A stretch of DNA of 64,000 bases from Narcine bancroftii (taxonomy: Eukaryota): the NCBI RefSeq assembly GCF_036971445.1, contig NC_091475.1, positions 15,624,001 to 15,688,000 of the forward strand, written 5' to 3'. The notes beneath the pieces are model-generated. The model was given only the letters and a program-made list of their open reading frames with translations, was not told where the DNA came from and made no database searches. This document shows positions 19,701 through 57,378 of the stretch, piece by piece (positions within the stretch are counted from its first letter, which is position 1; every line of letters starts with the position of its first letter). The translations under genes were made by a program, and so were the position numbers.

Positions 19701-19882
19701 CTGTAAAAGAACAAGTCCTTGGCCAACCATTTGATTCCAATGATCTTAAATATGATCTCATAGGTTTCCAGTGCTTTCAGATGGACGCCAATGGGCAGGG
19801 CTGGGTGCAGGCATTGCGCTAACCTCTTACTAATGATCAGACGTCTCGGCAAGAGAGAGTACTTCAAATTGCTCTGGAGGGC
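19701..19882 (-). CDS. DOP1B: DOP1B coding exon 2
   Basis: [60 protein letters not shown](S), part of the Dopey_N domain. 182 nt, AG/GT flanks, phase consistent. Confidence 0.96.
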
Positions 19883-20585
19883 CTGAGGGTTAATAATGGA
19901 CAAGGTTGCAATAAAACATTCAGGCAACAGCATTATTAATTCATAAATTCAGAATATCTCAAATTTCTCAAGGAGTGTGCAAGCAATAGGTAAAATGTTT
20001 TTTTTTAAATTTAGACATAAACCACAGTTACAAGCCCTTCTGACCCACAAGCCCGGTGCCACTCAATTACACCCACCTTAACCAATAACCCTCATACATT
20101 TTGAACAGTGGGAGGAAACCCATGCTCACAGTGCTGTTCTAACCGCTTTGCTAGCCGTTATTCAGCAAGCTGGGCAGAGTGGACAACTCTCATGAAAAAT
20201 GCATCCTCCCTTCTCCAGCAGCATCTGATGGACTGTAATTGGATTGGATTGTTCATGGTCATCTGTATTGAAGTACAGTGAAAAGCTAGTTCTGTGTGTT
20301 ATCCAAGCAAATCAGCCCATACTCAAGTACAGCAGGTAACACGATGACAGGGTTACATTAGGCAGCAATTCTGGTGGTGGTAGGGACACAAGAAGGTAGA
20401 TTGATTGTAATGCATGAATGTAGATGCTCTGCCAGGAGCAGCTTGTAAAATGTTGTCCTACTCTGGCACAACTGGTCAAGGCAGAGATGATGAATAGTTA
20501 ATGGATTATTGTGGAATTAATTCATATTCTGCAATCCCAGCCAAAATGTTCCAGTGCAGAACCAACACTGGCATCCACTCATCTA

Positions 20586-22239
20586 CAGAGCCCTCCATAA
20601 TGTTTCATTCCCCTGTGCTCCACCGTTTTAAATTTGAAATCAAACCTATCAACATGCTATGATTTATTCAAGGTTACTTGTATACATTTTGGTTTGACCA
20701 TGTAGAAATTACAGCAATTTTTATACATTGTCCCCTCATTTCAGGGCACCAGAATGTTTGGGATGTTTGCCTTCACAGATGTTTGTGAGTATTCAGATGT
20801 GTTTAATTGCTTCACTGGTGACAGCTGGGCTTGCTTCGAAGCTTTTGACCACTTTTGCCATTTTTCTACACGAGGACCAGAGTTGTGCCAATTAAAGTCA
20901 AAGAAGCCATTATGAGGCTGAAATAAAACAGTAAGAGACTTCACTCAAACCTTAGGATTATTAAAAGCAACAGTTTGGAATATCAGTAAGAACAAGTGCG
21001 CTGGTGAGCTTAGTCATTCCAACCTGAAGCACTGACCATTCTTTTTTCTCCCACTGATGCGACTCGACCTGCTGAGTTCTTGCAGCAGAGGACTGGTGTT
21101 CCAAGGAAAACCTCAACTGCTGATGGCAGAATAATTCTCATGATAATGAAGAAAAATCCCCAGACGGATCAGAAGCACTCTTCAGGAGGCAGGTGTCAAT
21201 CTACTGACCTCAGGAGACTTTGTGAACAGAAATACAGAGACCACACAGCAAGATGCAAACCATGGCAAAGTTGGTATACTCTGGATCTTGGACAGTTCCT
21301 TTATGCCTCTACAGTTTACTCTTGCCATCTCTCTAATACAGGTTAATCTTGGACTCATCTCATCTGTCCACAAGACCTTTTTTTTCTCAGAACTCTTCAG
21401 TCTCTTAAATATTTCTTGACAAACTGCAATATGGCCATACTTTCTGTAGCTAAATAGTGCGGCCTCTGTCGGGTATTTCAGTTCATGGTCTTCTGCAGTC
21501 CATATAATCATTGAACATTTCCACACATTCCTGCTGAAGAATGACTTCCCGTTTGGGGATTTTTCTTCATTATGATGAGAATTCTTCTTCCATCAGCAGT
21601 GGAGGTCTTCCTTGGAATGCCAGTCCCTTTGTGATTACTGAGGTCACCATTACGCTCTTTCCTCTTGATCATGTTCCAAACTCTTGATTTTGATGATCAT
21701 AAAGGTTAGGCGATGTCTCTTAGTGCTTTATTCTTGTTATTAAGCGTCATAATGGCTTCTTTGACTTTCATTGGGCAGAACTTATGAAAAAGAAATGGCA
21801 ACTCCACACTCCAAAGTTGATCAAAAGCTTCGAAGCAAGCCCAGCTCTCTTATACCTGCACTAATGAAGCAATTAAATGCACCAATGAGCAATTAAACAC
21901 ACCTGAGTACTCACAAACACCTGTGAAGCCAAACATTATGGTGCCCTGAAATGAGGGGACAATGTATAAAAATTACTGTAATTTTATATGGTCAAACCAA
22001 TACACATATAAATGCTGTATATGGTTATATTGCTGGTCAATGGGACTAGGAGGGTGGGGATTTGTTCTGGCATGGACTAGTAGAGCCAAACTGGCCTGTT
22101 CTGTGCTGTATATGGTTATAAATAACCTTGAATAAAATCTGCTATGTGTACTTTAAATTGTTTGATTATAAATTTAAAACTGTTGAGCACAGGGGCAAAT
22201 AAAAAAGCATCTTTGTCCCAAACATTCTGGAGGGATCTG
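20586..22239. mobile_element. Tc1-like DNA transposon derivative made of two inverted 5' halves
   Basis: TA|CAGAGCCCTCCATAATGTTT at the left end and AAACATTCTGGAGGGATCTG|TA at the right end. Transposase N-terminal remnants on both strands (PRKTSTADGRII on +, KKVLWTDE on -). Confidence 0.85.
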
Positions 22240-23888
22240 TACATGGGCAATACTGACAATGAGAGGGACACATCCAACCCAGCCAGGTGCCATCCAGCCT
22301 TCGCTCAAAGGAATGGAAGGTGTCATTAATGCTTCTATCAGAATATTTATCTCAATGTTCAATCTAGGCTGCGCTCTCTACACCCATTAACAAGGAATTC
22401 CAGAGGTGATGCAAGAGTGAACGCCCTGGAGCCGGAGACAGCTATTAACCAAGCGTGGCATCAAGGAACCCAGGTAAAAATGAAGTCATTGGGGCATCAT
22501 GAAGAAAGTTCTGCAATGGATGAGGTCAAGCATTCCAGAATAGAGTCCTGGAGCAAAGGATTCAGAGGGCAAGGGGGAGCTGATAGATATATGAAATTAT
22601 AAGAGGATTTTTCTTTCCCCCCCCCCCCTCCATTTCGGGGGTATCAAAATTAAGGTGAGAGGAACAAAATATAAAGGCGATTTGAGGAGATTTTAAAAAA
22701 GAAAGTAAACAGTGATTAGAAATCATGGTCTGAGATTGTAGTGTTAGATAAAAATCACATTTTTATGGGGTCCTTTCCTTAATTATTTTTAGAATTTATA
22801 AGATTATTGGATTCCATTTTACGGTTTGGTTGTCCTTTCTTTCATGTATTAATGGGACATATACGTTTAATCATAACCTCACAAGAGAAGGGCAAGATTA
22901 GGACAATAGTTTTTGTTTTATATACATTTTTGAGTTTTTTTTTGTCTCTTTCATATGTTGTTTACAGCTATTTGTTAATATATGTTTCCTTTGTTGAATA
23001 TATATTCTTGTTATTACCTAAATATGAGCATATGTAACAAAAAAAGAAATATTGGAAAGAGATAAAAATCACATTTATCAGAGATTTAAACAGGTTGAGA
23101 TGTGTATGGACCCAACATCGGCAAATTGAATTTGTGTAGGTGAGCAAAAATGCCAGAATGGACACAAGTGGGCCACAGGGAATGCACAACGGTGATTGTG
23201 GTTGTGGATAATGAATGAATCACACTGTAAAATACACCAAGGAAGTTGAACTCTAGTCCAATCGTCCAAAAGATACCAATACTCCACTTTTTAAATTAAA
23301 GAACTTGCTAAGTATAATTGTGCACACCGCACTGGGTAGATTTCAAAAATCTGAACAAACTATGACTGTAAACTGAAAAGAAGGCTAACTCATGACCAAT
23401 CCAAAGCAGAAAGCCATCTTATTTATTTGCCATCAACAGGAACACCATTGTAACCCATGTTGTAGTAAGCCCACAAGGAGACCGCCAGTGGACCAGCAGG
23501 ATCGCCCCCTGCAGGTGGGTGAGCTTCACCACAAGCGCACTCCAGCATGAGAAGGCAGAACTTGAAATCAGATAAGAGAAAAGATCTGGTTCAGTGAGAA
23601 GAATTCTTCTGCAAGCAGCATCACAGGTTATTTCTGACATTCATACAGCTATGAGTGGGGCACAATTTACAGAGAGCAGGAACGCAAAGAAAGATGGATA
23701 AGCACCAAGAGCAGCACATTAGCACTGATAATGGGGTTAGCTCCAGAATAAAAGTTTGGTACAATATGTCCCAATGCTTTAAACAGTTTATCTCTTTCCA
23801 GGAACTGAATGCACAGAGAAGTTGAAGCGGAGTTTAAAATTCCCAGCACCAACATCCTTATTTACCTAGCTCCCATTAATTCATTTAC

Positions 23889-24026
23889 CTTGTTAAGCTT
23901 TCCCAGTGAAGAGATAAGATCTGCCCATTCGGTGGATGACTCAAAGTTCTTCAAAGCTTTGTCGATTGTGGCAGAGTAACTTCTGTATCTGTACTCATTT
24001 ATCAAATTTAACTCTTCTTGGTCCAT
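23889..24026 (-). CDS. DOP1B: DOP1B (Dopey-2) first coding exon
   Basis: Translates [46 protein letters not shown], matching the DOP1B N-terminus (human [46 protein letters not shown]). 138 nt, donor GTAAAT, likely acceptor CTAAG| with the exon starting at 24055. Confidence 0.96.
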
Positions 24027-34778: not shown

Positions 34779-35621
34779 ACACCTTGCCTCTTATGTCCCT
34801 CTTAAATCTTTCCTATCTTGTCTAGAATTGTTGACCTTGAGTAAAAAGACTGAGCATTCACTTCGTCTGTGCCCCTCATGATTTTATAAACCTCTTGAAG
34901 ATCACTCCTCAGCTTGAAGGAGTAAAGACCCAGCCTATCCATCCACCCATAACTCAATCCCTCCAGTACCAGCAAAAAGAGAGATTTCAAGATCACTCCT
35001 CAGCTTGAAGGAGTAAAGACCCAGCCTGTCCATCCACCCATAACTCAACCCCTCCAGTACCAGCAAGAGAGATTTCAAGATCACTCCTCAGCTTGAAGGA
35101 GTAAAGACCCAGCCTGTCCATCCACCCATAACTCAACCCCTCCAGTACCAGCAAAAAGAGAGATTTCAAGATCACTCCTCAGCTTGAAGGAGTAAAGACC
35201 CAGCCTATCCATCCACCCATAACTCAACCCCTCGAGTACCAGCAAAAAGAGAGATTTCAAGATCACTCCTCAGCTTGAAGGAGTAAAGACCCAGCCTATC
35301 CATCCACCCATAACTCAACCCCTCGAGTACCAGCAAAAAGAGAGATTTCAAGATCACTCCTCAGCTTGAAGGAGTAAAGACCCAGCCCCATAACTCAACC
35401 CCTCAAGTACCAGCAAAAAGAGATTTTGCTGGTACTGGAGGGGTTGAGTTATGGGTGGATGGATAGGCTGGGTCTTTACTCCTTCAAGCTGAGGAGTGAT
35501 CTTCAAGAGGTTTATAAAATCATGAGGGGCACATACCAAGTGAATGCTCAGTCTTTTTCTCAAGGTCAACAATTCTAGACAAGATAGGAAAGATTTAAGA
35601 GGGACATAAGAGGCAAAGTGT
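34779..35621. repeat. Inverted duplication of a CR1 3' fragment enclosing a ~91-bp tandem array (6 units)
   Basis: About 34779-34976 is the reverse complement of about 35424-35621. Units beginning GATCACTCCTCAGCTTGAAGG start at 34900, 34991, 35079, 35170, 35261 and 35352. Confidence 0.93.
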
Positions 35622-39735: not shown

Positions 39736-40895
39736 GTTTTGTCTTTGAACTCGAAACAAAAGATTAACAAGGAATTTATTTTTTCCATTCTACTGAAACC
39801 ATCCAAACAAAAAATTCCTTGATTATCAAAAAAATGAAAAAGGTCACAAAATTGAGAGAGGATCCTTTTTTGAGGTCTAAAAACTCGTGATGGGCATAGA
39901 TAAGATGACTAATGACAGTCTGTTTCCTGAAGTGGGAGAATCTAAAGCAAGAGGACATAACTATAAAGGTGTGGAAGGGATGTGATTTAGAAGGGACTTG
40001 AGCGAACATTTATTCATTGAGAAGGTGATGGGCACATGAAACAAGCTTCCAAAGTGACAGTGCCAGGTATGTTAGCTTCCCTTATGAAACAATTGTATAA
40101 TTATGTGGATGGGAGGGGCTTGGAGGGGTGCAGAACTAAAACATTGTTCAGCATGGACAAGCTGGACCTTTGTCTATGTTGCATGACCATGATATTGCAA
40201 ACAGACAGTAATATTCTTACTTGCCGTAGTTGACTAACTGATCTAGTGCCATTTGACAAAATGCCATTCTCTTTTCCCATTCTTATCCATGTACCTGTCT
40301 AAATGAGGAAAAGATGAACATCTGATAGGACATGCCGTTCAGGAGCCTAATCCCCAAGGGCAGGAAACGGTCACAAACACAACTGGGTTGTTGATACCAC
40401 AGGGTCAGGTTGGAGGAGCAGAAAAATGGGAGAGAGGCAGAGAAAAGACGCAATTAAAACTAAAATTAGTTAAAATAATGAGAATTTATTTTCATATACG
40501 CAAGTACAATGTATGGAAAAAAGTTTTAAGCAATAAGGAAAATCACAACTAAAATTAGAGCAGAATTTCATCATGGTATCCTGTGTCACATACTAAATCA
40601 ATGACCTAATTTTCTGCTGCTATTTTGGGACCCTAATGTGAATACAAACCAACTCACATCTGCACGAATGGCACAATGTTCATGAGAGAACCATGACATC
40701 AATCCACAAAACGTATTCCTCTGCTGCCCTGCTTTTCTTGTCACTTAAAGGATGAAATTATTAATTTTTTTCTGAACAAATTTAAGGTTAATAAATTCAC
40801 TGAATAAGCAAAGTATCTGCAAGAATTATGGATGATATTTGAAACGGGGAAATCATCAATTTTTACCAAGTGCCTTTTATCGAATCCTGCAGTTT

Positions 40896-41332
40896 TTACC
40901 ATTCCTGAACAGTTTTATTGGTTACATACTTTCCCTGTGGGGCTTCTGCACCTGCTGCAAGAAGGGCTAAATAAACTGGGGTCACAGCACCTTCTTCTGC
41001 AGTGCCAGGGGCATTGGGACCTGCCATATCGGTTTTCACCCAACCAGGACAACAAGCATTCAAGAGGATCTTGTCAGCTGGCCTCTCTTTATTCAGCTTT
41101 CGGGCAAGGATCATTGAGAGGACTGTAACACCCAACTTTGTCACCCCATAAGCATGAGAAGGCCACCCTTTTTCAGGGTGTACCCCATTTTTAGCATCTT
41201 CAACAAACTTTTTCATCAGTTCTACCAGTTCTTCCTCTGTGATCGTAGAACTGCGGAATTTCTCTTGGAGTTCAGAGCTGCAATTCTTCAGTGCTCTAGC
41301 GCCACACATGCTGGATACATTCACCACTCTCC
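40896..41332 (-). CDS. CBR1: Carbonyl reductase 1-like, copy A, exon 2
   Basis: GRVVNVSS...AYGVTK (catalytic S and YxxxK)...NACCPGWVKTDMAG...VQEW*. 437 nt including stop. Joined CDS is 831 nt, 276 aa, intact. Confidence 0.96.
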
Positions 41333-42109
41333 CTGCAGATTTTACAGAAAATGTTAAGTGGTTAATAAAGGACACAAAACAAAACACTGAACAGTTTTCT
41401 CCTTCATTAATTATATCCTCTTTGTGAAAACTTTCTCATAGGAAGAAATCGTTTCAAGTTTGAGCAGGAAAACTGTGAAATCAACAGCAATTTATTTTGC
41501 ATTAAGATCACATCTCTGATGCTAGAGAAAGAGCTAATCAGCTTCATTCCATTTTCCTGCTCTACAAATGCAGATCATGGTTTTGCAAAGGACACATCTT
41601 TGTATTGCTCAAGTACCGAGTGTCTGCTTCTGCCAAACTTTCAAGCGAAGGGTTCAATGAAAAAAAAATTCTTTATGTTCCCTCTAATTCTTCTACAAAC
41701 AAATCAGTTTACAGTAAGCAGATTACTGAGCAAAATCACAAACAAAAAAGGGTGTAAAATCTAAAATGCAATTATTTCTACCTTTAATATACAAGAATCA
41801 TTATCCACAACTCTCTTGTGCAGACTATTTAAAGATGTATCACACTGCAAGAGAATAAATTCAATTTCATTTCACACAAATGGTGAATTCCTATTATACT
41901 TCCTTGTCCGCATAATCAACCATGGCAATAGCCTCAGAATCAACAATAACATAACTTCCAAAAGTATAGGCTCAATTTACTGAAGCCGTTAGAACTGCTG
42001 CCACACAAATCCTGCTGAGTTATTCACCAACAGTTCCTTATTCATGTCAATCACAATCAAATCATTCCTTGAACCTGTGATCTTGCACACATCAGGCATC
42101 ACACTTCAT

Positions 42110-42255
42110 CTTCTTTCTTTCTTCTTTGGCTTGGCTTCGCGGACGAAGATTTATGGAGGGGTATGTCCACGTCTGCTGCAGGCTCGTTGGTGACTGACAA
42201 GTCCGATGCGGGACAGGCAGGCAAGGTTGCAGCGGTTGCAAGGGAAAATTGGTTG
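42110..42255 (-). mobile_element. RTE-clade LINE extreme 3' end
   Basis: Minus-strand FPCNRCN..CLSRIGLVSHQRAC zinc-finger-like end, followed by GCCAAGCCAAAGAAGAAAGAAAGAA tail. Confidence 0.75.
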
Positions 42256-43367
42256 TTATAACTTCCCCTAAATGCTCAAACACTTAAGAGGCTTGCATTC
42301 CGCTTACCCTTAATTATCATACACTACTTAGCAAAGCAAATGGAATAAGTGGAGAAAGAAACTATTTAAAAAAAAATCAATTATTAGAAGTTTTAAAAGA
42401 GATAAAACAAGTGTTGTTACCGGTAAAGGGACAAAAGGAGAACTTACAAATGAGGTCTGTAATAAAAAACATCTGACATTGAAACAAGACCAAGTTTCTC
42501 TTTTACTTTCCCAGTGTCTCCTTTCCTCTCGCTTCGCTCCCCTCCCTCTTCCTTCTCTTTCCTTTAAGAGTTACCCCCCCCCCATCACAACTCAAGCTTT
42601 TTCTCTTCTACCTGTGGGCCTGCACTCTTCCCCTGCCACTCCCTCCCTGCTCTCCTCTCCCCACATTTTTACTCAGAGGCCTGACTGGCTTTTGTTCATA
42701 CCTTGATGAAGGGATAAGGCCCAAAGTGTTGATTACCTGCTCTTCCTACAGATGCTGATTTTTAATCGGCACTTTTGAGTATTGCACAATCACAGGACTT
42801 GTTCAACTGGAAATACTCAGAACAGGCACCAAAAGCAGAGAGAACATTTTTTTGGGGGCTCAAGCACCTTTCACTTGGAGGAATTGTGTGGAGTTTGAAG
42901 GGCTTTGAGAAAGATCATGAATACAAGTAGAAATTGAGCAGTTGAGGGGTGAAAGAATAAAGGAAAATTAGAAAGCAATATGGGACCAAAAATTGGGCTG
43001 GAACTAATAAAAACACAATGTTAAAGGAACTCAGCTGGTCAAATTATGTATTTTACGTAGCAATATTACACAGAGTAGGCTGTTTAATCAGCTGAGTTTC
43101 TCCAGCATTGTTTTTTAACTCCAACCAGAGAGTCTGCCGACTTTCAGGTTTTACCTCAATTATCTTTTGTACTCAAGAAAAAACACATCCACAAAAGAGA
43201 GAAATGTAAAGAAATAAAGAAATATAAACAAACTGAATGGATGGATGGCAGCTGTTTCTGAACCTGGTGCTTCTAGACTTGTGGCACCTATACTGCTTTC
43301 CTGATGTTATTAGCATGTCGTGGGTGGTGTGGATCCTTGATGATTGCTGCTGCTCTCTGACAGCAGT

Positions 43368-44487
43368 TGTCCTGGGTAAACTTGTACCTCTCACTTTGTT
43401 CGTTTTAGATTGGTCAGTGTTTGAGCTACCGAAACACCGAGAGCAGTTCAGTTTATACAAATGTTTATTACAAATTCAAAAGCTGATTTCAAACTACAAT
43501 ATGCAAGCCATTCCCAATTATACTTATCAACGCCTGGACTGGTCCCAACTGCTGAAGCGAGGCAATGACTCTTGTACACACTTGTAGTAGGTTGTCGGTG
43601 CGCCGGTAGCAGCTTCTCCACCTCCCCCGACTGGGACGTTAGCTGGACTCTAGAAGTTCTTCTTCTTGCTGAGAGACGTTCCCACCCCTCAGAGAGTCTT
43701 CACTTCAGCAGCGGGACCATGGCTTATATTACCCAAAAATTGTTTACTCATAGTTTATCTCTTTGAATAAATGATTTAAATATCTTCAAGGTCTCCTGAC
43801 AGTCTGCAACCAACAAAAGACAACTGCATCTCTGGGCCTCATGGTGGAATTTAGATTATGTCTCCTGATGCAACTGCATCCCTTCTTGCATAAGCTGGTA
43901 TAAATCCTCCATTACATTCCACTCCTTGGTCGCAGCCTGTCACTTACGAGACCTTACAAGCATTTGAGTACAGAAGGAACGGAAAAGAGAAACTAAAATT
44001 ATAATAATCACAAAAATAAGCAATAATGCGAGCAACCAACGGAGAATATTGTGGTCCAATCCCTCAAATGTACCAGCGAACCATGAAAAAGGATTTCAAT
44101 CAAGGCTCAAACTATCCTTGTGGGCCACAATACCCAGACGCTGAAGCTCACGAACAGATTTTGAAAAATACTGAACCATATCAGATATATTAGTGGATAC
44201 ATCGGGCTGTGTCCCCCCCACGGGCAACTCCCTCGGAACGTCCTCAACATTACAAATCCAATTGCTGGCATCAAAGCAACTGTTAAGCCAGATTAGCAGG
44301 AGCACAAGACTATGTCTTTATGATGCTGCTGTGACCAACAAAAGACAACTGCATCTCTGGGCCTCATGGTGTAAATTAGATTATGTCTTCCTATATTCAA
44401 CAGCATCCCTGGGCCCCATATTGGAATTTAGATTATGTCTTCTGATGCATCCCTTCTTGCATAAGCTGGTCTAAATCCTCCATTACA
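43368..44487 (-). mobile_element. Internally deleted LTR element (ERV-like) with 5-bp TSD GCAGT
   Basis: TG...CA ends and GCAGT on both sides (43363-43367, 44488-44492). Partial 5' LTR, internal fragment, purine tract AAGGAGTGGAA, then a full 3' LTR at 43916-43368. Confidence 0.88.
43940..44305 (-). pseudogene. Env/TM-like membrane protein remnant inside the LTR element
   Basis: ...NISDMVQYFSKSVRELQRL...LD*NPFSWFAGTFEGLDHNILRWLLALLLIFVIIIILVSLFRSFCTQMLVRSRK*. Amphipathic helix, aromatic membrane-proximal segment, TM helix and short basic tail, ending just before the purine tract. Confidence 0.6.
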
Positions 44488-47351
44488 GCAGTGTATCATG
44501 GAGTGATACCCACTCAGTGGAATTGGTGCTCCTCTCTCCCCCCCCCCCCCCCCAAACCAGGCGGTAAAGCAGCTGGTCAGCACTTTCCATTGAAGTTTGC
44601 CAAAGTTTCCGATGACATACCGAACCTCTGCAAACACCTGAGGAAGTAAAGGCGCTAACATGCTTTCTTCACGATGATGTTAGTGGGTCCAGGAAAGGTC
44701 CTCTGAGATGGTGACTCCCAGGGATTTAAATTTGCTCACCCTCTCCATTTCTGATCCCCCAAATATCATTGCATTGTACACCTCTGGTTTTTCCCTTCCT
44801 AAAGTCTACAATCAGCTTCTTGTTTATCGGGGGCATTGAGTGAGAGGTACACCATTCAGCCAACCTTTCTATCTCCCTTCTGTATGCTCGCCAGAGCCAC
44901 CCTCACCAATCCTGGTCAAAGTCATGAACATGTCATGAAATTTGTTGTTTTGCAGCAGTTTCACAGTGCAAATATTTAATATAAACCACCTGGCTAAATA
45001 AATAAATAGTGCAAGAAAAAAATCAAAGTAAGGCAGTGCTTGAGGTTCATTGTTCATTCAGGGATCTGCTGACAGCAGGGAAGAAGCCGTCCTTGTGCCA
45101 CTGAGTGCTCATATTCAGGCTCCTGACCCTTTTTCCCGATGGTAGCAGAGTGAAGAGAGCATGGCCTGGGTGGTGGGGGACTTTGAGGATAGAGGCTGCT
45201 TGCCCAAGACACTACCTTTTGTAGATATCCTCGATGGAGTGAAGACTGGTGTCTGTGATGTCGCAGGCCAAGTTAACAACCCTCTGGAGTTTTTATTTCC
45301 TGTCCTGAGCGCTGGCATCTCCGTACCAGACAGTGATGCAACCAGCCAGAATGCTCTCCACGGTATATCTGTACAAGTTTACAAGTCTTCGGTGATATAC
45401 CGAATCTCCTCAAACTCTGCACCAAGTATAGCCGCTGGTGAGCCTTCTTCCAGATCGCATCGACATGGAGGCTCCGGGACAGATCTTCGGAGACGTTGAC
45501 ACCAAGGAATTTGAAGTTCTTGATCCTATCCAGTTTTTTTTTACAGAAATAAAGGCCGAGAAAGTAGCATCTTTATAAATCTTATGTGACCAGTTAACCA
45601 GCAAGTCTTCAACATAATGCAAGGTTCAGGAAGCTGCATTTCAAACAGCATGGATCACACTATATACAAAATCATAATTTTCATATTAATTGTTGGCATT
45701 TTTACATTTTTGTCAATAAAAAATTGCTTTGAAAACATGTCAGATTCAATTTAAAAACATCAAAGTCCCCCACATTTATGCAAACCTAGTATTTGCAATG
45801 ATCATGTCCCCTTGCTGATATTAAGTTGATTCATAAAATAAATTAAAGGGCTCAACATGCTGGCAAAATACCCATTGCCTCTCATACAACCACTCAAGCA
45901 TAAACATAGACACTTTTGTTTAACCAATGTAAACTTGTACAATTATTTTTGTCTTAATCGAACATTATATTTTTGTTGTGGAATATTTTAGTAAGGGCAA
46001 ATTCAACATTTATTTCAATGCATACAGCAAAATTGATCAAATAGCCCATAAATTTGTTGCATTTAAAGCAGAAGAATGTGCATACTGAACAGATAATTAA
46101 ATGTAATTGAAGTAAATCAATTGATAACCTGAAATTCATTTTTGGGAAACACCCATCTTTGTTTTCACTCCAGACTTTGCATTGAGTGCAGGAGCAGGGA
46201 AGTCACAAAGCAAATGCACAGAACAATAATGAGACTGCATTTGGTCCGTTATGCAGTTTTGGTCACCCAGTGAAGGATATCATGAAGCTGGAAGGTGGTG
46301 GGACTTTTCTCCCTGGAGCAAAGAGTTTGGGGTGGGGGCAGGGCAGGAAACCTTGTAGAGGTTTACAAAATCAGTAGATAAGGTAAATAGCCATATCCTC
46401 CACCCCCCCCCCCCCCCCCACCACAGTTGGTGAGCCTAAAATTACAGGGCACAGATTTAAGGTGAGAGCAAAGATTTAAAAAGGATCGGAGGGGCACCTT
46501 CTTCACACAGAGGGTGGTGAGTACATGGAATGAGCTGCCAGGGGAAAATGATAGCAGTGGGATAATTATTATATTAAAAAGACAGATACAAAGATAGGAG
46601 ACGGTTAAAGGGATATGGGCTGAATGCGCGCAAATGGGACCAGCTTGGTCTCCGAGAACAAGGTGGGCCAAAGGGTGTGTTTCTGTGAATAAGAATACTA
46701 TGACTTTTCTGTACTTTAGTCAGATTTTGCTGATGAGAAGTAACTTAATCATGATCAGATTAAAAAGATAATTACATTTGAAATTCAGAGTGCAAATGAG
46801 TGGTCCTAAGATGTTAATTTCCAAACACGTTTACTTTTTATTTTTATGATCCAATTTAGCATTTAATGTTCTTTATTGTAAATGCCTTGTTATTACATAT
46901 TGAAAATGTTGAAACATCTTTCATTGGACCATCTTGCACTGCAAAGGACTAAAATTCATGAACATTAGCATCAGAAAGTCCTTCTTGTATAAATTGCTTT
47001 GTTGTACAGGTACTGGTTTTAGGATTGAGATTTCTGGACAGTGCCATTGACCCAGACTAAAAGCACATCAAATTGAAATGACTGACAAGATCCTATCCAC
47101 TGTTGAGCCCCTGATAAGGACTGGTTCCTGATACGTGGTCCCCTCCCATCAGCCAATCCCCAGCAATGTTTCCTGCCCTGTCTTATCCCAGGCACCTCCT
47201 AATTGGCGAGGTGATGTTTTCGCACCCCCCCCCCACCCCCCTCAGTTTCCCGGCACCTGTCCCTTTCAACCTCCATGATCTTGGCTACCCGCCAAGGTGT
47301 AAACGATGGACAGTAGGACCCCGTGGAGGACTGGAAGCCCGCTCCTCTACT

Positions 47352-47690
47352 TTTTTAAAAAAAACTACAAACTTTATTCAAAACTCCAAATTCCAAGGCA
47401 CAAACCACACACACAGAGCTACAACCAACCAAAATTGCGAGAAGCAGTAATCACCTTCACCTCTCTGTTCCACTGTATTCAGGTCAAATTAAAACACGAT
47501 TTTCAGCCACAATCACACACGCAATCCCTTGGGATGCCCACCATTCCCGGAACTCGGCCACCGACCCTTCGCACACCATGTGCTCCCTCTCCAACAGGCA
47601 CAGGCCCGGACGTAACGCCGAAAGAGGGGCAGAAAGTCAGTTCGCCCCCTCCCCTCCTCAATCGCCCTGCGAATAGCCACCCCCCCCCCC
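47352..47690 (-). mobile_element. Tx1-like LINE 3' end
   Basis: Minus-strand RTDFLPLFRRYVRA C-terminal remnant, then AATAAA and an A-rich end. Confidence 0.55.
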
Positions 47691-48200
47691 CTCATAGAGA
47701 TCCCGACCCCCCCACACTTCCGCACTGTGCGACCGGAGAGCGGGACTGAAACGCCGCGCAGCCAGTGACAGGCAGCCGGGGTGTTGTTGAACCGGCTCAA
47801 GAAGTGGTTACACCGCACGGCTTGGCGCCATCCAACCCCCCACCGCCCCCCCCCCCGCCCCGAGTTCCCGCCACCATGTGCACAAACGAGCCGAAAGGCA
47901 GCACAGAGACAGCTTCTTCCCCTCTGCCATCAGAATGATCAAGGAACCGAATCTCGGGCTCCAGCCCGAAACGTTGGGGATGGATCTTTACCTTTGCTGT
48001 CTGACCTGAGTTTCTCCAGCATTCTCCCCCCTCCCCCCTCCCCCTCCCCACCCACCCCAACTTAACCACCGGCGTCCACAGAATCCTGTTTTACCAAGGA
48101 ACCAAAGAAAGTGCCTTACTCTTCATGCACTTTTGCTTTTATATTTCCTGCTGTCAGGTGGCACCATGATGCTGCGGCCGCACAACACCGACTTGCTCAC

Positions 48201-48797
48201 GACCCCCCGACCCAAAGGTCGCCCGAGGCTCTGCATTTGGACCCCCCCGACCCAAAGGTCGCCCGAGGCTCTGCATTTGGACCCCCCCCGACCCAAAAGT
48301 CGCCCGAGGCTCTGCACTTGGACCCCCCCGACCCAAAGGTCGCCAGAGGCTCTGCATTTGGACCCCCGACTCAAAGGTCGCCCGAGGCTCTGCACTTGGA
48401 CCCCCCCGACCCAAAGGTCGCCAGAGGCTCTGCATTTGGACCCCCGACTCAAAGGTCGCCCGAGGCTCTGCATTTGGACCCCCCCGACCCAAAAGTCGCC
48501 CGAGGCTCTGCACTTGGACCCCCCCGACCCAAAGGTCGCCAGAGGCTCTGCATTTGGACCCCCGACTCAAAGGTCGCCCGAGGCTCTGCACTTGGACCCC
48601 CCCCGACCCAAAGGTCGCCAGAGGCTCTGCATTTGGACCCCCGACTCAAAGGTCGCCCGAGGCTCTGCACTTGGACCCCCCCGACCCAAAGGTCGCCAGA
48701 GGCTCTGCATTTGGACCCCCGACTCAAAGGTCGCCCGAGGCTCTGCACTTGGACCCCCCCCGACCCAAAAGTCGCCAGAGGCTCTGCACTTGGGACC
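48201..48797. repeat. ~40-bp GC-rich minisatellite, ~15 copies, at the 5' end of the CBR-A intron
   Basis: Unit GACCCCCC(C)GAC(C/T)CAAAGGTCGCC(C/A)GAGGCTCTGCA(T/C)TTG. Confidence 0.97.
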
Positions 48798-48823
48798 GAG
48801 CGTTTGATTTCAAAGCTGCTCAC

Positions 48824-49217
48824 CCAGAGGCTTGACGATGGGGAGGAGTTCGGTGCACATCTCCCTGGTGCTGAAGAAGTTGGTTTTCATGGTCACTTCA
48901 GCTTGGACTCCGAACGGGGCGGTGTCCGCCACTTTGAAGGCGATGCCGGCGTTGTTGACCAGGACATCGATGCCTCCGTAGTTCTTCAGCATGAACTCGC
49001 GGAGCTTTCGGATGCTCAGTGGATCGTCGATGTCCAGCTGGTGGAAAAGCGGCTTCAGCTGCTCCTGCTGCAGCTTCTGCACCGCCTGCTCCCCGCGGCC
49101 CTGGTCCCGGGCCGTCAGGAAGACGTCGCCGTCGAACTGGCGGCAGAGAGCCCGCACCACCTCCAGCCCGATGCCCTTGTTGGAGCCGCTCACCACCGCC
49201 ACTCGCTTGCCGGTCAT
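48824..49217 (-). CDS. CBR1: Carbonyl reductase [NADPH] 1-like, copy A, exon 1
   Basis: MTGKRVAVVSGSNKGIG...LDID...GGIDVLVNNAGIAFKVADTAPFGVQAEVTMKTNFFSTREMCTELLPIVKPL(G). SDR Rossmann motif GxxxGIG and NNAG present. 394 nt, donor GTGAGC. Confidence 0.96.
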
Positions 49218-49229
49218 GTTCGGCTCTTC

Positions 49230-49730
49230 CTGAGAACGCGCGCGCGGAGGCGGGGCTTTGGAATCGAGCCTGCCGGGCGGGAAGGCGCATGCGCGCCGAC
49301 GTCTGGGCGGCCCCGACGCGAAAGCGGAGGCCGCTGGGCTGGATGAACTCGGCAGGTTTCCCGCCGCAGCGCCTGTGGGGGGGGGTAAAGACACCCCTCA
49401 GAAGGATTAAACTTTATTCGATATAAACTATGTTCAAAGGAAAACCACGTGCATGAAAGTCTGCGGATACCATGATGGAAGCCATTTCCGATCGGGCCTC
49501 CGCCGCTACGTCATTTCCGCCTCCGGTCCCCTCGTTCAGGGGTCTGCAGCCCGCGTCTCTCACTCATCCCTCTGCCGTGGAAATCACGTGCATGAAAGTC
49601 TGCGGACACCGTGGTGGAAGCCATTTCCGTTCGGGCCTCTGCCGTCTACGTCATTTCCGCCTCCGGTCCCCTCGTTCAGGGGTCTGCAGTCCGCGGCTCT
49701 CTCTCATCCCTCTGCCGTGGAAACCACAGT
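49230..49730 (-). promoter_or_regulatory. CpG-island promoter of CBR copy A
   Basis: NRF1-type GCGCATGCGC at 49285-49294, GC boxes, and a ~140-bp direct duplication. Each duplicated unit carries CACGTG and TACGTCATTTCCG (CRE half-site plus ETS core). Confidence 0.7.
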
Positions 49731-50429
49731 AAATGTCTATTTTATTTAATTTTTTTAAAAGTTTTATCAATACAATAATTATTAATTTCGAGGATTAAGG
49801 TGATCTTGTAACATTAAAACGTCAATTAAAATTTGCGTCACAGCCCTATAGTGGTTGATACCACTGTATGCATTGCCTGTTGCCACCCGGCGTGACCCAT
49901 CCCCACCCCCCTCCCCCTCCCCATCCCCCTCCCCATCCCAACCCCCACCCCCCTCCCCATCCCCATACCTCCCCATCCCCACCACGGTAAGCTAACCATG
50001 CATCAATCCCAATAAAGAACTCCGACGAAATCTGCAAATTCAGGTAGTTTTGTGGCCAGGCACGGTGAGCCGTTCACAGATGGGGAAATTGGTTATCAAG
50101 ATATCAGAACATCTATTCTCAGACTTCAAAAACAACCATATAACCGTTTACAGCGCGGAAACAGGCCATAACGGCGCTTCGAGTCCGCACCAGTTCACTA
50201 GAACACCTCCACTAGTACTCCCCCCCCACTTCCCACTCTCCGCCCATAACTCCCCAACCCCCTCATATCCAAGTACACATTCAACCTTCTCTTAAATGAC
50301 AGACAGGATTCTGCCGCAACGATCTCTGGAAACTCATTCCATTCTGCCACCACGCTGAGTGAAGCAGTATCATCATAACATTTTTCCTAAAGTTTTGCTC
50401 CCTTACCCTTATGCTCTCTTGTTCCAACC

Positions 50430-52014
50430 TGATGTATGTGATATTCAGCAAATAGCGCAATTATGCAGATATGTGAATTCTGCAGGGCCACAAGAAGAAA
50501 TCATTGAGTTGATACCACTTTAAGGCCCAACATGGGGGGAGTGTCAGTGGCTACTGATGGGGTACCATGTATGACAGGAGCACAGAAGGGGTTTGGGACT
50601 AATTCAGAAGTCGCTAGATGGAAAACTGCTGATGTTTCACTGCATCAAGAGGCATTGTGCACTCAAACGTTTCCTCTGGAATGCACAGAAGTAATGAATC
50701 TTGTCACACAGATAGTGAACAAAATAATGGCAAAAGAATTAAACCACAGACAGTTCAGTTCATTATTGGAAGAAATTGTAAGCATAATGTCTGGTGGCTG
50801 TCCAAAGGGGAGATGCCGAAGTGGTTTGCAGCGTGCCTGGAGCTTGTAAAAACTTTCCTGGAAAGTAAAGGGCTCACCTTTCCGGAGCTAAAACAGCCAG
50901 ATGGGCTGGAAAAGCTGTACTTTGTGGTGGATGTGACCGTGCACCTTAAAATGCTGAACAAAAGTCTTCAGGGAAAAGGAGGCAATGCAAACTGCGTTTG
51001 GGGAAAGATGCTGTGAGTTCAGAGAGGAAAAATACTTTGTCCTTCCCTGTCACTCCTCTAAACATCGATTTATCCCTGTTGAATATGACTGCATTTACAG
51101 ATGTAAGTCAACCTGATCTTGAGATCTAACTGGCTGATATAAGACTTATGGATGTCTAAGTTCAGAAGCTTGACAGCTGATCTTGAAGATATAACTCATT
51201 CTTGCTCAGAAGCACAAATGGAGTGAAATTGAAAACCTCCCCAAACCGGTCAAGCGTATTCTAAACATGGAATTCAATTCCCGACTCTTATATGAACATG
51301 AAAAAAATATGCATTCGGAGTCCTGTCGATCTTCAGATCCACAGACTTATGTGAGCAGGTTTTCTCCAGCATGAACTACATAAAAAGCTAGCGCCTCACG
51401 GATGACGTCATGCAATCTTGCATGAAGATCAAAGTGATATCTTACAGCCCTGATAATGATCAGCTGTGCAGTGAGGTTCAGGAGCAGAAATCATATTAAT
51501 CTGGTGAAATAAATAATTGAATGAGTTATTATTTTGCAAATATACATTTTGAAATTGGAGCCTGAACTGATGTAGTTGTGATTTATATTTAGGTTGGCGG
51601 TTGGCTGCTGTAGCTACGCGACTGAGGAAATCAACAGATGTCGGCAACCTTCAGAATAAAGTACACACCGGCATTTTTTTGTTTGCTCTTTTTAATTAAA
51701 GCAAATTTTTTTTTAAAATTCCACAACTAAGGGATGGACTCAACCAGGCCTGTATTATGTATTTTTATTTGAAACTTATATGTGCTTTGTTACAAACAGA
51801 AACAAAATGTCAGTTGTTTTATGTTTGTAGTTCCTTTATTTCATAAATATGCTATGTATGTAAGGACTATAATTTGTTATAAGTGTAATGAAACTATATA
51901 TGCAGTCTTTTCTTAATTTTAGGGATCAAGCTGATTTTGTGGCTCCAGATGGGTTTTATTTGATGGGAAACAGGCCCAAATAGCTCTTTTAATTCTGAAG
52001 GTTGCCGACCCCTG
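50430..52014 (+). mobile_element. hAT (Charlie/Buster-like) transposon, decayed 3' part
   Basis: Frameshifted transposase motifs SVATDGVPCMTG, LHQEALC, VWWLSKG and STDLCEQVFSSMNYIK (hAT dimerisation domain). Terminal AAGGTTGCCGACCCCTG TIR. Confidence 0.88.
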
Positions 52015-53422
52015 CCTAGTTTTAGCTTTCTCTTCCCTCTCCTTTCACAGGACCAAAAATCACTTCTCACCTTTCCTCTTGTTTGTTGGTCTGGACTCCT
52101 TCCCCTCCCATTCTTCCCTTTCTCTCTATTGAGACATCCACCTGTTTTTTGTTTTTGCTTATACAGTACTTTGAAGAGGGGCTCAAGCTCAAAATATTAT
52201 TAACACATCTATCTCCTATGAATGCTTTTGGCCATTATGTCTGGACAAGCTTCTACTCTCTTCCCATATCAGGTCTTAGTTTTTTCCTCTTCCACCTGTT
52301 ACCTCTTACCTGTTAGCCTGTGTTTCTTCCCCTTTCTCTCCTCCTCCCCCCACTATTTTATTTGGGTGTTGGCCTGTTTTTTTTCCTTACTCCTGACACA
52401 GGACCCAGGCAGGCCCAAACGCTGGTTACCCTTTTCTTCCCGTGGATGCTGCGTGACCTGCTGAGTTTCTCTAGCACATTTGTGTATTTCACACCACCAT
52501 CGAGCCTCCCCCTCTATCTAATTCAATTTCTGGTAGATTATGAGGGACTGCCTCTGGTGTTAAGGTATTTATAGATTGAAAACAAGAGTGTCATAAAATT
52601 TAAAAATTAATTTGGAAACTCACTCTATGTATTCATCACTCTGCATGAAAGATATTCCCTTCAGGCCCCCTTTTGAAAATCTGCCACCCTCAATCCCCTA
52701 CACTCTAGTAAGTAACAATCAAAACCTATCATTGTTGTGAATCTTTACTGCACCTTTTCCAGTTTTGTAACACACAAACCCACGCACTAATTCCATTTAC
52801 CTGGTCATTATTCAATTCAGTTTTTTGTCTGTAGTATTCAATACCTTGCTTATTCAAGTGGTTGTTTGGGTTCTTCTTGAATGTTACAAGAGTATTTGCC
52901 CCCACCATGTGCTCAGGGAGTGATTTTGGATTATCAGGAATAAAACATAGAACACAGATGCTGCAGGAAAGAGTAGCATGAACAAATTGAATTAATGCTT
53001 TATGATTAGTTCAAAGGTTTTTAAGCAATGAAGAAAGATCTAATTGAAATTAAACCAAAGTTTCTTCATGACATTAGATGTCTCACACAAGCTCACTGGC
53101 ATACTTCATTGTCATGGTTTTTCAAAAGTACATGCACATACATGTGCAAACATAGCTCAGTGCCTTGAGAATCTGAGCTGCTAATCCATTTCCTTTACTG
53201 CCTTGAAGAATTGCTTCCTGGTACTGTCTCCAGAGAAAAGAATAAAACCACAATAGGTAGGATTAAATGATTAATCTTTATTGAAAAATCAAGGCAAATG
53301 AATTGAGTAAACAAAGTTATAAATCAGTATGAATCAAAGGATCTGAGTTAGTAAATAAAGAATATCCTTAAAACTTTGTACTCTCCATTTATTTTTAGTG
53401 CCCTTTGCTTCACCCTGCTGGT

Positions 53423-53859
53423 TTACCATTCCTGAACAATTTTATTGTACACAAACTCTCCATGTGGGGCTTCTGCACCTGCTGCTAGAAGGGCTAAATA
53501 AACTGGGGTCACAGCACCTTCTTCTGCAGTGCCAGGGGCATTGGGACCTGCCATATCAGTTTTCACCCAACCAGGACAACAAGCATTCAAGAGGATCTTG
53601 TCGGCTGGCCTTTCTTTGCTCAGCCTTCGGGCGTAGATCATTGACAGGACTGTAACACCCAGCTTTGTCACCCCATAGGCTGAGGAAGGCCAGCCTTGTT
53701 CAGCGTGTACCCCATTTTTAGCATCTTCAACAAACTTCATCATCAACTTCACCAGTTCTTCCTCGGTGATCGTAGAACTGCGGAATTTCTCTTGGAGTTC
53801 TGAGCTGCAATTCTTCAGTGCTCCAGTGCCAGATTGGCTCGATACATTCACCACTCTCC
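53423..53859 (-). CDS. CBR1: Carbonyl reductase 1-like, copy B, exon 2
   Basis: GRVVNVSSQSG...AYGVTK...NACCPGWVKTDMAG...VQEW*. 437 nt. Joined CDS is 278 aa, intact. Confidence 0.95.
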
Positions 53860-55637
53860 CTGCAAGTTTTTTTTTAAAAAATTGGATACAATGAACATTC
53901 ACAATCGAACGAGAGATTGTCTTTTCCATTCACTTAATCCTATTTTGACTTTCCTAATTACAGACATTTAACAAATAGAGTTCTTTGACCCATGCCAAAC
54001 AAGCCAGTTCTGTTTGCCTGTATTCAACCCATATCCTGTTGAACTTTTCCTATTCATGACTAAATGTCCTTTAAATATTCAACCATTTCCTCTGGCAGCT
54101 CATTCCTTGGACTTGCCACCCTCTGTGTGAAAGGTGCTTCTCAGAATATACCATTCCACTTTCCCAGTTCATCTAAATCTTATTGTAATCAGATTTTCAC
54201 TTCACTGTCTACTATATCATCGATCTAATAGCAACATTATTATAGTGGTTCAAATCTGACACTCTCTGTAAAGAGTTTGCATATTCTCTGATATGTGAGG
54301 GCTTATCCCCAGATGCTCCAGTTTCATTCCACTCTCCAAAGCCTATGAGGTTTGGCAAGTTAATTGGGTGTATTGAGCAGCAGAGTTTCATGGGCTGGAA
54401 GGGCCTTCTACCATGTTGTATCGTTTTAAAAAGATTTTATGTCACCAACTTACCAATCTTGCCAACTACATTCTCATCCAAATCAATAATATAAATGACG
54501 AACAGCAGTAGCTAGCACCTATCCCTGCAGCATATCACTTGCCATTGGCCAATGTTTTGAAAAGCCTCCACTACCACCAAACCAATTGTGCATCCAATGG
54601 GTTAGCTCACCCAAGTGAGCTTACCCACCACACCTGGTCAAAAGACCTACTAAAATCCATGCATTTAACATTTACCACCCTGCCCTTATCAATCCTCCAG
54701 AGAAGTTTTCAAACAAAATCAAAAGTCATGATTTAATTTAAATATACAGCATGGTAACAGGCCTTTTCAGCCATGAGCCCGTGCCGCCCAATTACACCAC
54801 AACCACGGTACATTTTGAAGGGTGGGAGGAAATCTGAGCTCCCAGGGAAAACCCACACAGACACAGGGAGAACATACAAACTTCCAGTGGTGCTGTAACA
54901 GCGTTGTGCGAACTGGGCTGCCCCATTTTCCAATGCAGTCATGTTGACTGTCTCAAATCAGCCAAGGGCATATGGATCCTGTCTCATTTGACCTGATTTG
55001 AGAACAATATAGTTTGATTTTATCTTATGAACCAAATTTATTGTCACAAGAATGGAGATACAGTAGAAAAAAAATTGTTTTGCATTCTGAAAAAAATGGT
55101 AGTCGTCAAAACCCCAAAGTATGAAGTTACAGTGAAAAAGTTTTGTACAAACAGTACCAGCGTAATATCATTTTACTCATGAAGCCGAATCAATCATCAG
55201 TAACAACACAGAAGCAGTCAAACTGAAAGCATTAAAGATTTAAAACATTTAAAACCAACATAAAAGTCAAGCACATAAAATTGAAGTGATATCCATGAGA
55301 TCTGTTACCAGTTTAATGTTTTAGAGGTTATACATTTGAATGAGAAAATATTAGGTGTTTCCCAATAAATGTGTGCACTGGAGGCTGAGTTTTTAACTAT
55401 AATTTTAATGAATTTAACACAGATCTGTGTCTCCCAATTACACAAATATATTGGTGCTGCAATAAATGATCCAAGAAGACAGTTAGCAGTTAATCATGGT
55501 TCTATCAAAGGTCATTTCACAATTGCATGGTTTCATGCCGTATATTTGCTAAGGATTAGCAAAGATAAAAACTTAGCCAAGGAAAATAGGGCAGAGAGCA
55601 AGGGAGGGGTAGGACACTAAAATCTGCAATCTCCTAC

Positions 55638-55814
55638 TGTATTGTACTGACAATAACCACACCAGCAGTGAGAGTATAATTTAATAAACTAATATGTACA
55701 CTAAGAGGTCTTGTCTCTCTACAAGATTAACCTGGAAGTCTAGACTGTAGCTCAGGACTGCTTTATATACAAGGTCACCGGGATGACCTCATGGTGTACT
55801 TGCATATCACCACA
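55638..55814 (-). mobile_element. Possible short solo LTR
   Basis: TG...CA ends with minus-strand TATATAAA and ATTAAA in LTR order. No TSD found. Confidence 0.45.
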
Positions 55815-56145
55815 GATGTAAAAACACAATGTTGGAGAAACTTTGCAGGTCTAACAGCGTACTTTAGATAGCAAAGACAGATAGGGCTTTGAGCCCTTCA
55901 TCAAAGTATCTCCAGTAATGCATTTTTATTTTTGGCCTGGGGTCAAGTATTCAGCAGCGTTCTGGAGGGGTCGTGGCGACTGGAATACAATGGTGAAGCT
56001 TTGCAGAAAATGCATTAAATGGTCAGAAAAATGAGGGACGTCTAAAGGAGAAAGCACAAAATGAATGTAGTCCAATCAAAAATAAAGGCAACTAATGCAG
56101 CCCTCTGGAACTTTATGTGATAATCACTACGGCAAAGCTGCTCAC

Positions 56146-56545
56146 CCAGAGGCTTGACGATGGGGAGGAGTTCGGTGCACATCTCCCTGGTGCTGAAGAA
56201 GTTGGTTTTCATGGTCACTTCAGCTTGGACTCCGAACGGGGCGGTGTCCGCCACTTTGAAGGCGATGCCGGCGTTGTTGACCAGGACATCGATGCCTCCG
56301 TAGTTCTTCAGCATGAACTCGCGGAGCTTTCGGATGCTCAGTGGATCGTCGATGTCCAGCTGGTGGAAAAGCGGCTTCAGCTGCTCCTGCTGCAGCTTCT
56401 GCACCGCCTGCTCCCCGCGGCCCTGGTCCCGGGCCGTCAGGAAGACGTCGCCGTCGAACTGGCGGCAGAGAGCCCGCACCACCTCCAGCCCGATGCCCTT
56501 GTTGGAGCCGCTCACCACCGCCACTCGGCTTCGGATCGTCGACAT
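56146..56545 (-). CDS. CBR1: Carbonyl reductase 1-like, copy B, exon 1
   Basis: MSTIRSRVAVVSGSNKGIG...IVKPL(G). 400 nt, donor GTGAGC. Identical to copy A from RVAVV onward. Confidence 0.95.
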
Positions 56546-56856: not shown

Positions 56857-57378
56857 CGAGCCCGACTTGTCGAGCCCGACTTGTCGAGCCCGACTTGTCG
56901 AGCCCGACTTGTCGAGCCCGACTTGTCGAGCCCGACTTGTCGAGCCCGACTTGTCGAGCCCGACTTGTCGAGCCCGACTTGTCGAGCCCGACTTGTCGAG
57001 CCCGACTTGTCGAGCCCGACTTGTCGAGCCCGACTTGTCGAGCCCGACTTGTCGAGCCCGACTTGTCGAGCCCGACTTGTCGAGCCCGACTTGTCGAGCC
57101 CGACTTGTCGAGCCCGACTTGTCGAGCCCGACTTGTCGAGCCCGACTTGTCGAGCCCGACTTGTCGAGCCCGACTTGTCGAGCCCGACTTGTCGAGCCCG
57201 ACTTGTCGAGCCCGACTTGTCGAGCCCGACTTGTCGAGCCCGACTTGTCGAGCCCGACTTGTCGAGCCCGACTTGTCGAGCCCGACTTGTCGAGCCCGAC
57301 TTGTCGAGCCCGACTTGTCGAGCCCGACTTGTCGAGCCCGACTTGTCGAGCCCGACTTGTCGAGCCCGACTTGTCGAG
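56857..57378. repeat. Perfect 14-bp tandem repeat (CGAGCCCGACTTGT), ~37 copies
   Basis: No variant unit seen. Produces the 14-aa periodic ORFs SSPTCRARLVEPDL and GSTSRARQVGLDKS. Confidence 0.98.

Follow-up and report, generated by a model that had tools for sequence, protein, structure and literature searches.

First-exon identity and second-exon pocket divergence in tandem CBR1-like carbonyl reductase genes of the ray Narcine bancroftii, a pattern probably shaped by gene conversion

Human CBR1 (SDR21C1) and CBR3 (SDR21C2) are a tandem pair of carbonyl reductase genes with three coding exons each, whose products share the catalytic residues Asn113, Ser139, Tyr193 and Lys197, are 71% identical and are unlike at residue 141. 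Passages of one study attribute the different specificities of CBR1 and CBR3 to positions 141/142, 229/230 and 235/236, place Ala235 near the cofactor, count Asn113 in the catalytic set and describe the enzymes as monomeric (PMC2741203). In an excerpt from a structural study, Ile140, Met141 and Trp229 of human CBR1 surround an inhibitor bound at the substrate site (PMC1073692). Here, we describe two genes of this type, gene A and gene B, in a 64,000-nucleotide (nt) stretch of the Narcine bancroftii genome (NCBI RefSeq assembly GCF_036971445.1, contig NC_091475.1, positions 15,624,001 to 15,688,000), called the window below and numbered from its first letter. The ray pair resembles the human one in its tandem order, its four catalytic residues and the difference at residue 141, but its proteins are 94% identical and it has two coding exons instead of three. 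We consider it probable that this is a spliced CBR1-like pair whose duplication likely predates the split between skates and other rays, whose first exons are likely kept alike by repeated non-allelic gene conversion ending at the first intron, and in which selection likely guards a few substrate-pocket residues of exon 2. The parts of the two genes are as follows (UTR, untranslated region).

56146 to 56545, minus strand: coding exon 1 of gene B, the upstream copy; 400 nt counted from the ATG; the protein starts with MSTIRS and is the 278-residue NCBI model XP_069745072.1 (P0121)
53860 to 56145, minus strand: gene B intron, 2286 nt, GT..AG; spliced joint 53858-56145 present in contigs of runs X5 and X6
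53423 to 53859, minus strand: gene B coding exon 2, 437 nt, of the variable-pocket type (QSGTG at 140-144, Ser191)
48824 to 49217, minus strand: coding exon 1 of gene A, the downstream copy; 394 nt counted from the ATG; the protein starts with MTGK and is the 276-residue NCBI model XP_069745073.1 (P0007)
41333 to 48823, minus strand: gene A intron, 7491 nt, GT..AG
40896 to 41332, minus strand: gene A coding exon 2, 437 nt, of the conserved batoid type (MCGA at 140-143, Tyr267)
40466 to 40895, minus strand: gene A 3'UTR, loosely alignable to that of gene B and 93% like a retro-fragment on C5
56133 to 56527, minus strand: identical tract, gene B copy, 382 coding and 13 intron nt
48811 to 49205, minus strand: identical tract, gene A copy, 7322 bp from the gene B copy
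40936 to 41075, minus strand: near-identical exon-2 patch, codons 218-264, with 2 differences in 140 nt, both synonymous, flanked by two clusters of differences
48203 to 48793, no strand: G-rich minisatellite of about 15 copies of 39-40 bp in intron A, starting 17 bp past the tract end and absent from intron B

Exon 2 of gene A matches at 100% an NCBI model labelled Narcine bancroftii carbonyl reductase 1-like, and both proteins fall in the cluster of that model. The genome holds two CBR genes and two small fragments elsewhere. The best solved structure found with phmmer was human CBR1 (1wma, E=1.5e-126, residues 2-276 without gaps), with CBR3 (2hrb) at E=6.9e-114; the ungapped alignment makes the residue numbering of the ray proteins that of human CBR1. 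The precomputed Pfam assignments are PF00106/PF13561. Asn113, Ser139, Tyr193 and Lys197 are all present in A and in B, and the region of the predicted two-helix insertion after the catalytic Ser aligns to CBR1 without gaps. The CBR3-type substrate loop with Pro230 and Asp236 is found in neither copy: both carry Trp229 and Ala235 as in CBR1, within a 226-244 loop that is identical in A and B, and neither is CBR3. As judged from sequence, A and B are CBR1-like carbonyl reductase genes (SDR21C), whose products are predicted to reduce carbonyls with NADPH as monomers. The ray and mammalian duplications are likely independent.

An earlier note on this DNA, made from the letters alone, had reported that the first exons of the two genes are identical over 395 bp, synonymous sites included. 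We found that this identity is exact and cannot be extended, with a mismatch at the very next base on either side. On the minus strand the tract begins at codon 5 of gene A, directly after MTGK (MSTIRS in gene B), and comprises 382 coding nt and 13 nt of the intron, which confirms the abrupt stops described earlier at both ends. In exon 2, 42/437 nt and 17 residues differ, among them, as had been noted, residues 140, 141, 143 and 144 after the catalytic Ser and residue 191 before the catalytic Tyr. Synonymous divergence (dS) of exon 2 is 0.229 and replacement divergence (dN) 0.070; the dN/dS of 0.30, a ratio that the earlier note had proposed to compute, gives no overall excess of replacements. 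The contrast of 0/382 with 42/437 is significant (Fisher, p=1.5e-12), and the probability of zero synonymous differences at 91 synonymous sites, at the exon 2 rate, is 1.9e-9. The longest identical run in the spliced coding sequence is 401 nt, against a permutation maximum of 276 (n=20000). We rejected two simpler causes of the exon-1 identity, purifying selection by itself and a plain recent duplication. In the spliced sequence the identity runs 19 nt into exon 2, as it would after conversion from spliced mRNA; this explanation is needless since 13 intron nt are shared and the 19 nt are an invariant motif, codons 132-139 showing zero differences between species.

Outside the exons the copies have little in common. 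The 3'UTRs are distant homologues and proved loosely alignable, as claimed (score 76, against 31+/-3.8 and a maximum of 46 in 60 shuffles), and the introns and promoters were rightly called unrelated: 400 nt from each intron end and 300 nt upstream gave scores no higher than the shuffle range, and the sole self-BLAST match between introns A and B is a 62-bp dispersed repeat. The description of base composition was half right. Exon 1 is indeed rich in GC (62%) and CpG, whereas exon 2, at 47-49% GC, is not AT-rich; the contrast lies in GC at third codon positions (GC3, 0.87 vs 0.41-0.45) and in the observed/expected ratio of CpG (0.86 vs 0.21-0.32).

Five of ten listed sequencing runs, X5, X6, X7, X9 and X10, were compared with the window, all as Logan contigs. 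X5 to X7 were judged to be RNA by their spliced joints; X9 is labelled as another organism, yet only 0-1 letters differ, and it was therefore taken as an independent sample and not as an outgroup. In X9 (DNA, another study), the edge of the tract is the very point where one contig with 0 differences begins, and two further contigs carry the intron start of the A type and that of the B type; an assembly graph behaves in this way at a true exact repeat. X5 and X6 contain both exon-2 types besides the spliced joint of intron B. In X6 and X7, contigs run from the A-type 5' flank into exon 1 with 0 differences, a 1% threshold brings up no second letter in exon 1, and B-type flanks are present too. 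Both genes occur in other samples and are spliced or expressed there. Exon-1 divergence as large as that of exon 2 is excluded in these other samples.

Run X10 comes from another species and differs from exon 1 at 22/322 nt and from the body of exon 2 at 18/324; 12 of the 16 exon-1 codons with listed differences are synonymous. Exon 1 is thus not slow-evolving, its divergence from X10 being similar to that of exon 2. X10 also contains a 3'UTR and an intron end of the B type and a 5' flank of the A type, besides a second acceptor flank. If both loci predate the split from X10, about 26 differences in 382 nt would be expected between the copies and 0 are seen; within the tract the paralogues (0/382) are closer than the orthologues (22/322). 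The duplication is old, given the unalignable intron ends and promoters, the A- and B-type flanks in X10 and the grouping of skate second exons by paralogue described below, and it likely predates the split of skates from other rays. The divergence and flanks of X10, together with the batoid motif and the trees, support what the earlier note had proposed, an old duplication with gene conversion of exon 1. Two further observations were made on this run. Its A-type contig departs from exon 1 after 49100 with 28 unlike letters, a stretch left out of the evidence. At 53827-53840, both X10 exon-2 5' contigs have A-type letters at codons 138-143; the QSGTG of gene B may be young, or the patch may have been converted in the X10 species.

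Among eight batoid species with multiple copies, six have two protein models each, and Leucoraja and Amblyraja have three. One copy carries MCGA at 140-143 in all eight (8/8), a motif found in none of 15 shark proteins (0/15), and the partner copies vary there (QSGTG, MAGTG, TSGSE, MAGSR, TESKG, TLSKA and others). Tyr267 co-occurs with MCGA in this species, sawfish and skates. Ten within-species pairs differ at 27 residues in exon 1 and 121 in exon 2, with 44 of the 148 differences in residues 140-149; the rate there is 0.44 per site and pair, against 0.02 in residues 5-93. The peak of divergence thus recurs across species at pocket sites in these protein-level counts. Between species the two halves are equally different (means of 23.2 and 23.1 residues among nine shark and ray proteins). 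The 10-pair count leaves aside the third Leucoraja copy, Amblyraja XP_032888323, two near-identical Scyliorhinus torazame models, three Logan proteins and the single Mobula hypostoma model; P0001 and P0005 are fused models.

In the tree of residues 5-131, the two copies of a species are each other's nearest relatives in this ray, Pristis, Mobula, Rhinoraja (support 100/99), Amblyraja (models X1 and X2, 97/96) and two sharks; the copies of the two stingrays fall into a single group without internal resolution, and one Amblyraja copy joins Leucoraja. In the tree of residues 132-276, skate copies pair by paralogue over three genera (96/92 and 96/86), this ray, Mobula and sharks group by species, and Pristis and the stingrays are unresolved. 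The expectation that exon 1 clusters by species and exon 2 by paralogue is therefore borne out in skates and fails for this ray, whose exon 2 also groups by species. Such grouping in this species, sawfish, stingrays and devil rays implies that exon 2 has been homogenised as well except in short patches. The Amblyraja models P0014 and P0018 are filed as isoforms X1 and X2 of one gene and differ at 4 and 17 residues in the two halves; they are probably two genes merged, X2 being chimeric within exon 2. Cetorhinus (P0134/P0135) and Stegostoma (P0023/P0136) have two copies each, which group within their species for either half of the protein; these may be young duplications or older pairs that were fully homogenised.

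The exon-2 differences between A and B cluster at codons 138-144, 168-172, 184-217 and 264-272. Codons 218-264 are quiet, the synonymous deficit alone giving p=0.08. A fragment on C5 (about 62206100-62206670; L006 1065-1642) is a 5'-truncated processed copy of gene A that contains the last third of exon 2 and the A-type 3'UTR and is 92.6% like A over 580 nt. It carries the letters of A at 6/7 sites of the C-terminal cluster and those of B at both synonymous sites of the quiet patch, from which we infer that A and B were probably identical in the quiet patch when the fragment arose and already different in the C-terminal one. A second retro-insertion, on C22 (about 11810296; L003 1501-1609), lies between direct repeats of about 15 nt and consists of the last 64 coding nt of exon 1 (100%) and the start of intron A with an A-rich tail. 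It lacks 3 of the 13 shared intron-start nt, which could be gene A's older junction, a weak hint of conversion from B to A, or slippage. With Asn113 in exon 1, and Ser139, Tyr193, Lys197 and the 226-244 loop in exon 2, cofactor and catalytic residues are, by alignment to the human enzymes, spread over both exons, and the A/B differences sit at the substrate pocket. Residues 140-149 are a likely specificity switch of ray carbonyl reductases.

The pattern could have arisen as follows. As is expected from what is established on recombination, one copy would suffer a break in its CpG-island first exon and be repaired off the copy 7.3 kb away. In the excerpts available, recombination at CpG-island starts is described for dogs and birds (PMC11703093), and we found no report of it for cartilaginous fish. 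The observed pattern shows that the copied tract stops on either side where homology ends, on one side upstream of codon 5 and on the other after 13 nt of intron. In intron A, the minisatellite that starts 17 bp further on may strengthen the barrier. Tract lengths quoted for human conversion (mean 250 bp, detected tracts 880 bp, GC-biased) are compatible with the 395 bp seen here (bioRxiv 10.1101/135152, in part). Events in exon 1 would be costless and become fixed, and GC bias would help to hold GC3 at 0.87. Exon 2, by its pattern, is also homogenised in patches, with differences lasting at 140-144/147, 184-191 and 264-272, where selection would remove conversions that overwrite pocket residues. 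The outcome would be a conserved enzyme (A type, Cys141) and one with a lineage-variable pocket (B type), whose substrate ranges would differ.

A comparable boundary was found in mammals. Human CBR1 and CBR3 are near-identical over about residues 28-83 of their alignment. In 13 placental CBR1/CBR3 pairs (11 from the same species, one from the same genus and one from New World monkeys), 1-9 residues differ in 5-92 (mean 4.5; divergence of 4-7%), against 29% in 93-131 and 35% in 132-276. Over residues 5-92 the paralogue is nearer than the mean orthologue in 12/13 pairs, and in the tree of this part CBR1 joins CBR3 in hedgehog (100/99), gerbil, porcupine, bat and pika; over residues 93-276 all CBR3 form one clade (100/100), a clade that the approximately unbiased (AU) test rejects for 5-92 (p-AU 0.012). 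Fixed CBR1/CBR3 differences start at 95-97. An intron at 96 is indicated by amniote models from which precisely residues 97-132 are missing or which break off behind 96 (P0074, P0212, P0097, P0056), and Cbr3 is given three exons in a passage of PMC12206219. The ray gene lacks the codon-96 intron, and over 106-131 batoid pairs show little difference (0.015 per site within pairs, against 0.143 for different species), a boundary judged from the intron-less exon 1 of this species. As read from these sequences, homogenisation extends up to the first intron in rays and mammals alike, so that its end lies at about 95 in mammals and 131 in rays and does not follow a protein module. At residue 84, in the middle of the homogenised region, mammalian CBR1 has Asp and CBR3 Asn in 10/13 pairs, and three CBR1 carry the CBR3 letter; this is a candidate for a single selected site. 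It is somewhat more probable than its opposite that first-exon conversion has arisen repeatedly at the CBR locus of vertebrates, in such a way that after separate duplications in rays and placental mammals, among the latter the drug-metabolising pharmacogenes CBR1/CBR3, a CpG-island first exon has evolved in concert for more than 100 million years, with the position of the first intron, and not protein function, setting the shared extent, and intron loss in rays adding 36 residues. If so, the ray intron loss is a natural experiment in which gene architecture decides which residues of duplicates may diverge.

Other explanations start from the identity itself. A collapse in assembly or polishing is extremely improbable: the identity is perfect and lies in a GC-rich exon beside a minisatellite, runs X1-X4, possibly from the source sample, stand outside the comparison and contigs are able to hide isolated variants, but X5, X6, X7 and X9, all other samples, agree on one exon-1 sequence and show both types of flank, the pattern recurs in independent assemblies of seven other batoids, and the retro-insertion on C22 carries the last 64 coding nt without a mismatch. 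Repeated unequal crossing-over with expansion, contraction and chimeras, or independent young duplications with exon-1 replacement, would fit the varying copy number (three models in Leucoraja and Amblyraja) and Amblyraja X2, which looks chimeric in exon 2 with B-type 140-144 and A-type 266-270. We find this very hard to credit, as the unique non-homologous flanks of both tracts demand two or more crossovers inside 400 bp, a process that amounts to conversion, and this genome has two genes only, with orthologous flanks persisting in X10.

Other alternatives accept conversion and dispute what limits it. The earlier note had taken exon 1 for a cofactor module and exon 2 for a substrate module, a division that did not hold: catalytic and cofactor residues lie in both exons and the boundary follows the intron. 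A related idea is that selection keeps the N-terminal NADPH-binding module identical, conversion being the tool and function setting the tract. The homogenised part does always span the Rossmann glycine-rich motif and the strands to about residue 94 in rays and mammals, and maintenance of binding regions is discussed in passages of Carson and Scherer (PMC2720389). We nevertheless consider the idea improbable, because the boundary shifts with the intron, from about 95 in mammals to 131 in rays, and so speaks for the architecture of the gene and against selection that keeps the cofactor module identical. Moreover, exon 1 varies freely between species, so that no particular sequence is preserved, copies of a monomeric enzyme, as described in the passages on CBR1 and CBR3 (PMC2741203), need not match, and synonymous and intron identity bring no protein benefit. 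A neutral divergence threshold, with exon-2 patches escaping by drift and no selection on the pocket, draws on the slowing of conversion with divergence until escape, as set out in part of bioRxiv 10.1101/135152, on the synonymous differences across codons 138-217 together with the exon 2 dN/dS of 0.30, and on residues 140-149 being also the most variable stretch between species (0.34). It too seems unlikely: MCGA is kept by one copy in 8/8 species while the partner varies, even in Mobula birostris, Hypanus and Pristis, whose copies have the same or almost the same sequence in the remainder of exon 2, and random escape would not strike the same ten residues.

Conversion ending at the first intron, with selection at the pocket, has its own difficulties. 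The cross-species evidence is protein-level, with exon structure from this species alone, and contigs may drop isolated variants and none spans both copies, so a few single-nucleotide differences between the copies are possible. X10 gives one exon-1 contig per position and is silent on homogenisation in that species. The exon-1 GC3 contrast is confounded with the CpG island, and the GC skew of the differences from X10 is 10:3 (p=0.09). Groups for the AU tests were chosen after the alignment had been viewed; for skates the test rules against an MCGA clade in exon 1 (p-AU 7e-31) but does not reject a by-species Rhinoraja pair in exon 2 (p-AU 0.072). The first exons of some skate copies differ, Amblyraja XP_032888323 at 14-15 residues from its two neighbours and the Leucoraja copies at 6-8. 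Outside skates, the orthology of exon-2 paralogues rests on two short motifs, and independent duplications with convergent motifs are formally conceivable there. In two teleost pairs the pattern is absent (14/88 and 18/88 residues differ), some rodent CBR1-like pairs are more different in exon 1 than in the last exon, and the mammalian divergence beyond 95 could be selected, given that CBR1 and CBR3 are strongly different in function.

Two further features of the window complete the description of the locus.

56857 to 57378, no strand: perfect minisatellite of 37 copies of a CpG-containing 14-mer, about 310 bp upstream of the gene B ATG
10643 to 23990, minus strand, same as the CBR genes: Dopey_N-encoding exons of the DOP1 family, the downstream neighbour (C16:15634643-15647990 in genome coordinates)

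The CBR-DOP1 arrangement mirrors the order CBR1-CBR3-DOP1B, which we take to be that of the human genes. No SETD4-type upstream neighbour (PF09273) was found near the window. The CpG-rich region upstream of gene A contains a 140-bp tandem duplication (49442-49727, 92%), and exon 1 of gene A to at least 49440 is unbroken in RNA contigs of X6 and X7. More G-skewed tandem arrays lie at 1599-2941 and at 34779-35621, the second with an inverted copy.

The locus offers a replicated, testable case for the open question whether long-lived conversion is bounded by functional selection or by homology that introns set, and a copy whose Cys141 is kept in rays and skates alike. A further consequence is that trees of CBR1/CBR3, dates based on dS, and short-read genotyping or expression counts within exon 1 can mislead; CBR3 is listed as poorly covered in targeted sequencing in a passage that states no cause (PMC6547602). 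Conversion or concerted evolution of carbonyl reductases was undescribed in the open-access literature searched, where one paper on conversion names CBR1 and CBR3 for their expression only; supplements of conversion scans may list CBR1/CBR3. Among described systems, BMP8A/B, DDX19A/B and TUBG1/2 resemble the ray pair in that exons clustering by species stand next to exons clustering by paralogue, with limits that are kept from one species to another and high GC3 in the concerted part, as far as the main text and five text supplements of that work go, from which CBR genes are absent; unlike in those pairs, the concerted part of CBR is a CpG-island first exon whose end moves with the intron position (PMC2720389). 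In BEX/WEX/GASP, too, passages describe a 5' exon with raised G+C that evolves in concert by conversion apart from the remaining gene, but there it is a non-coding 5'UTR exon in a 20-gene cluster, and in the ray an exon for half an enzyme in a two-gene tandem (PMC1274310). Exon 5 of the red and green opsins, treated with the Teshima-Innan model in the portion of PMC3924837 available, shares with ray CBR the short peaks of difference at function-defining residues; opsin introns are homogenised, whereas those of ray CBR are unalignable and only exons exchange. The process, mosaic concerted evolution with divergence peaks under conversion, is known, and within open-access searches its description for carbonyl reductases is new.

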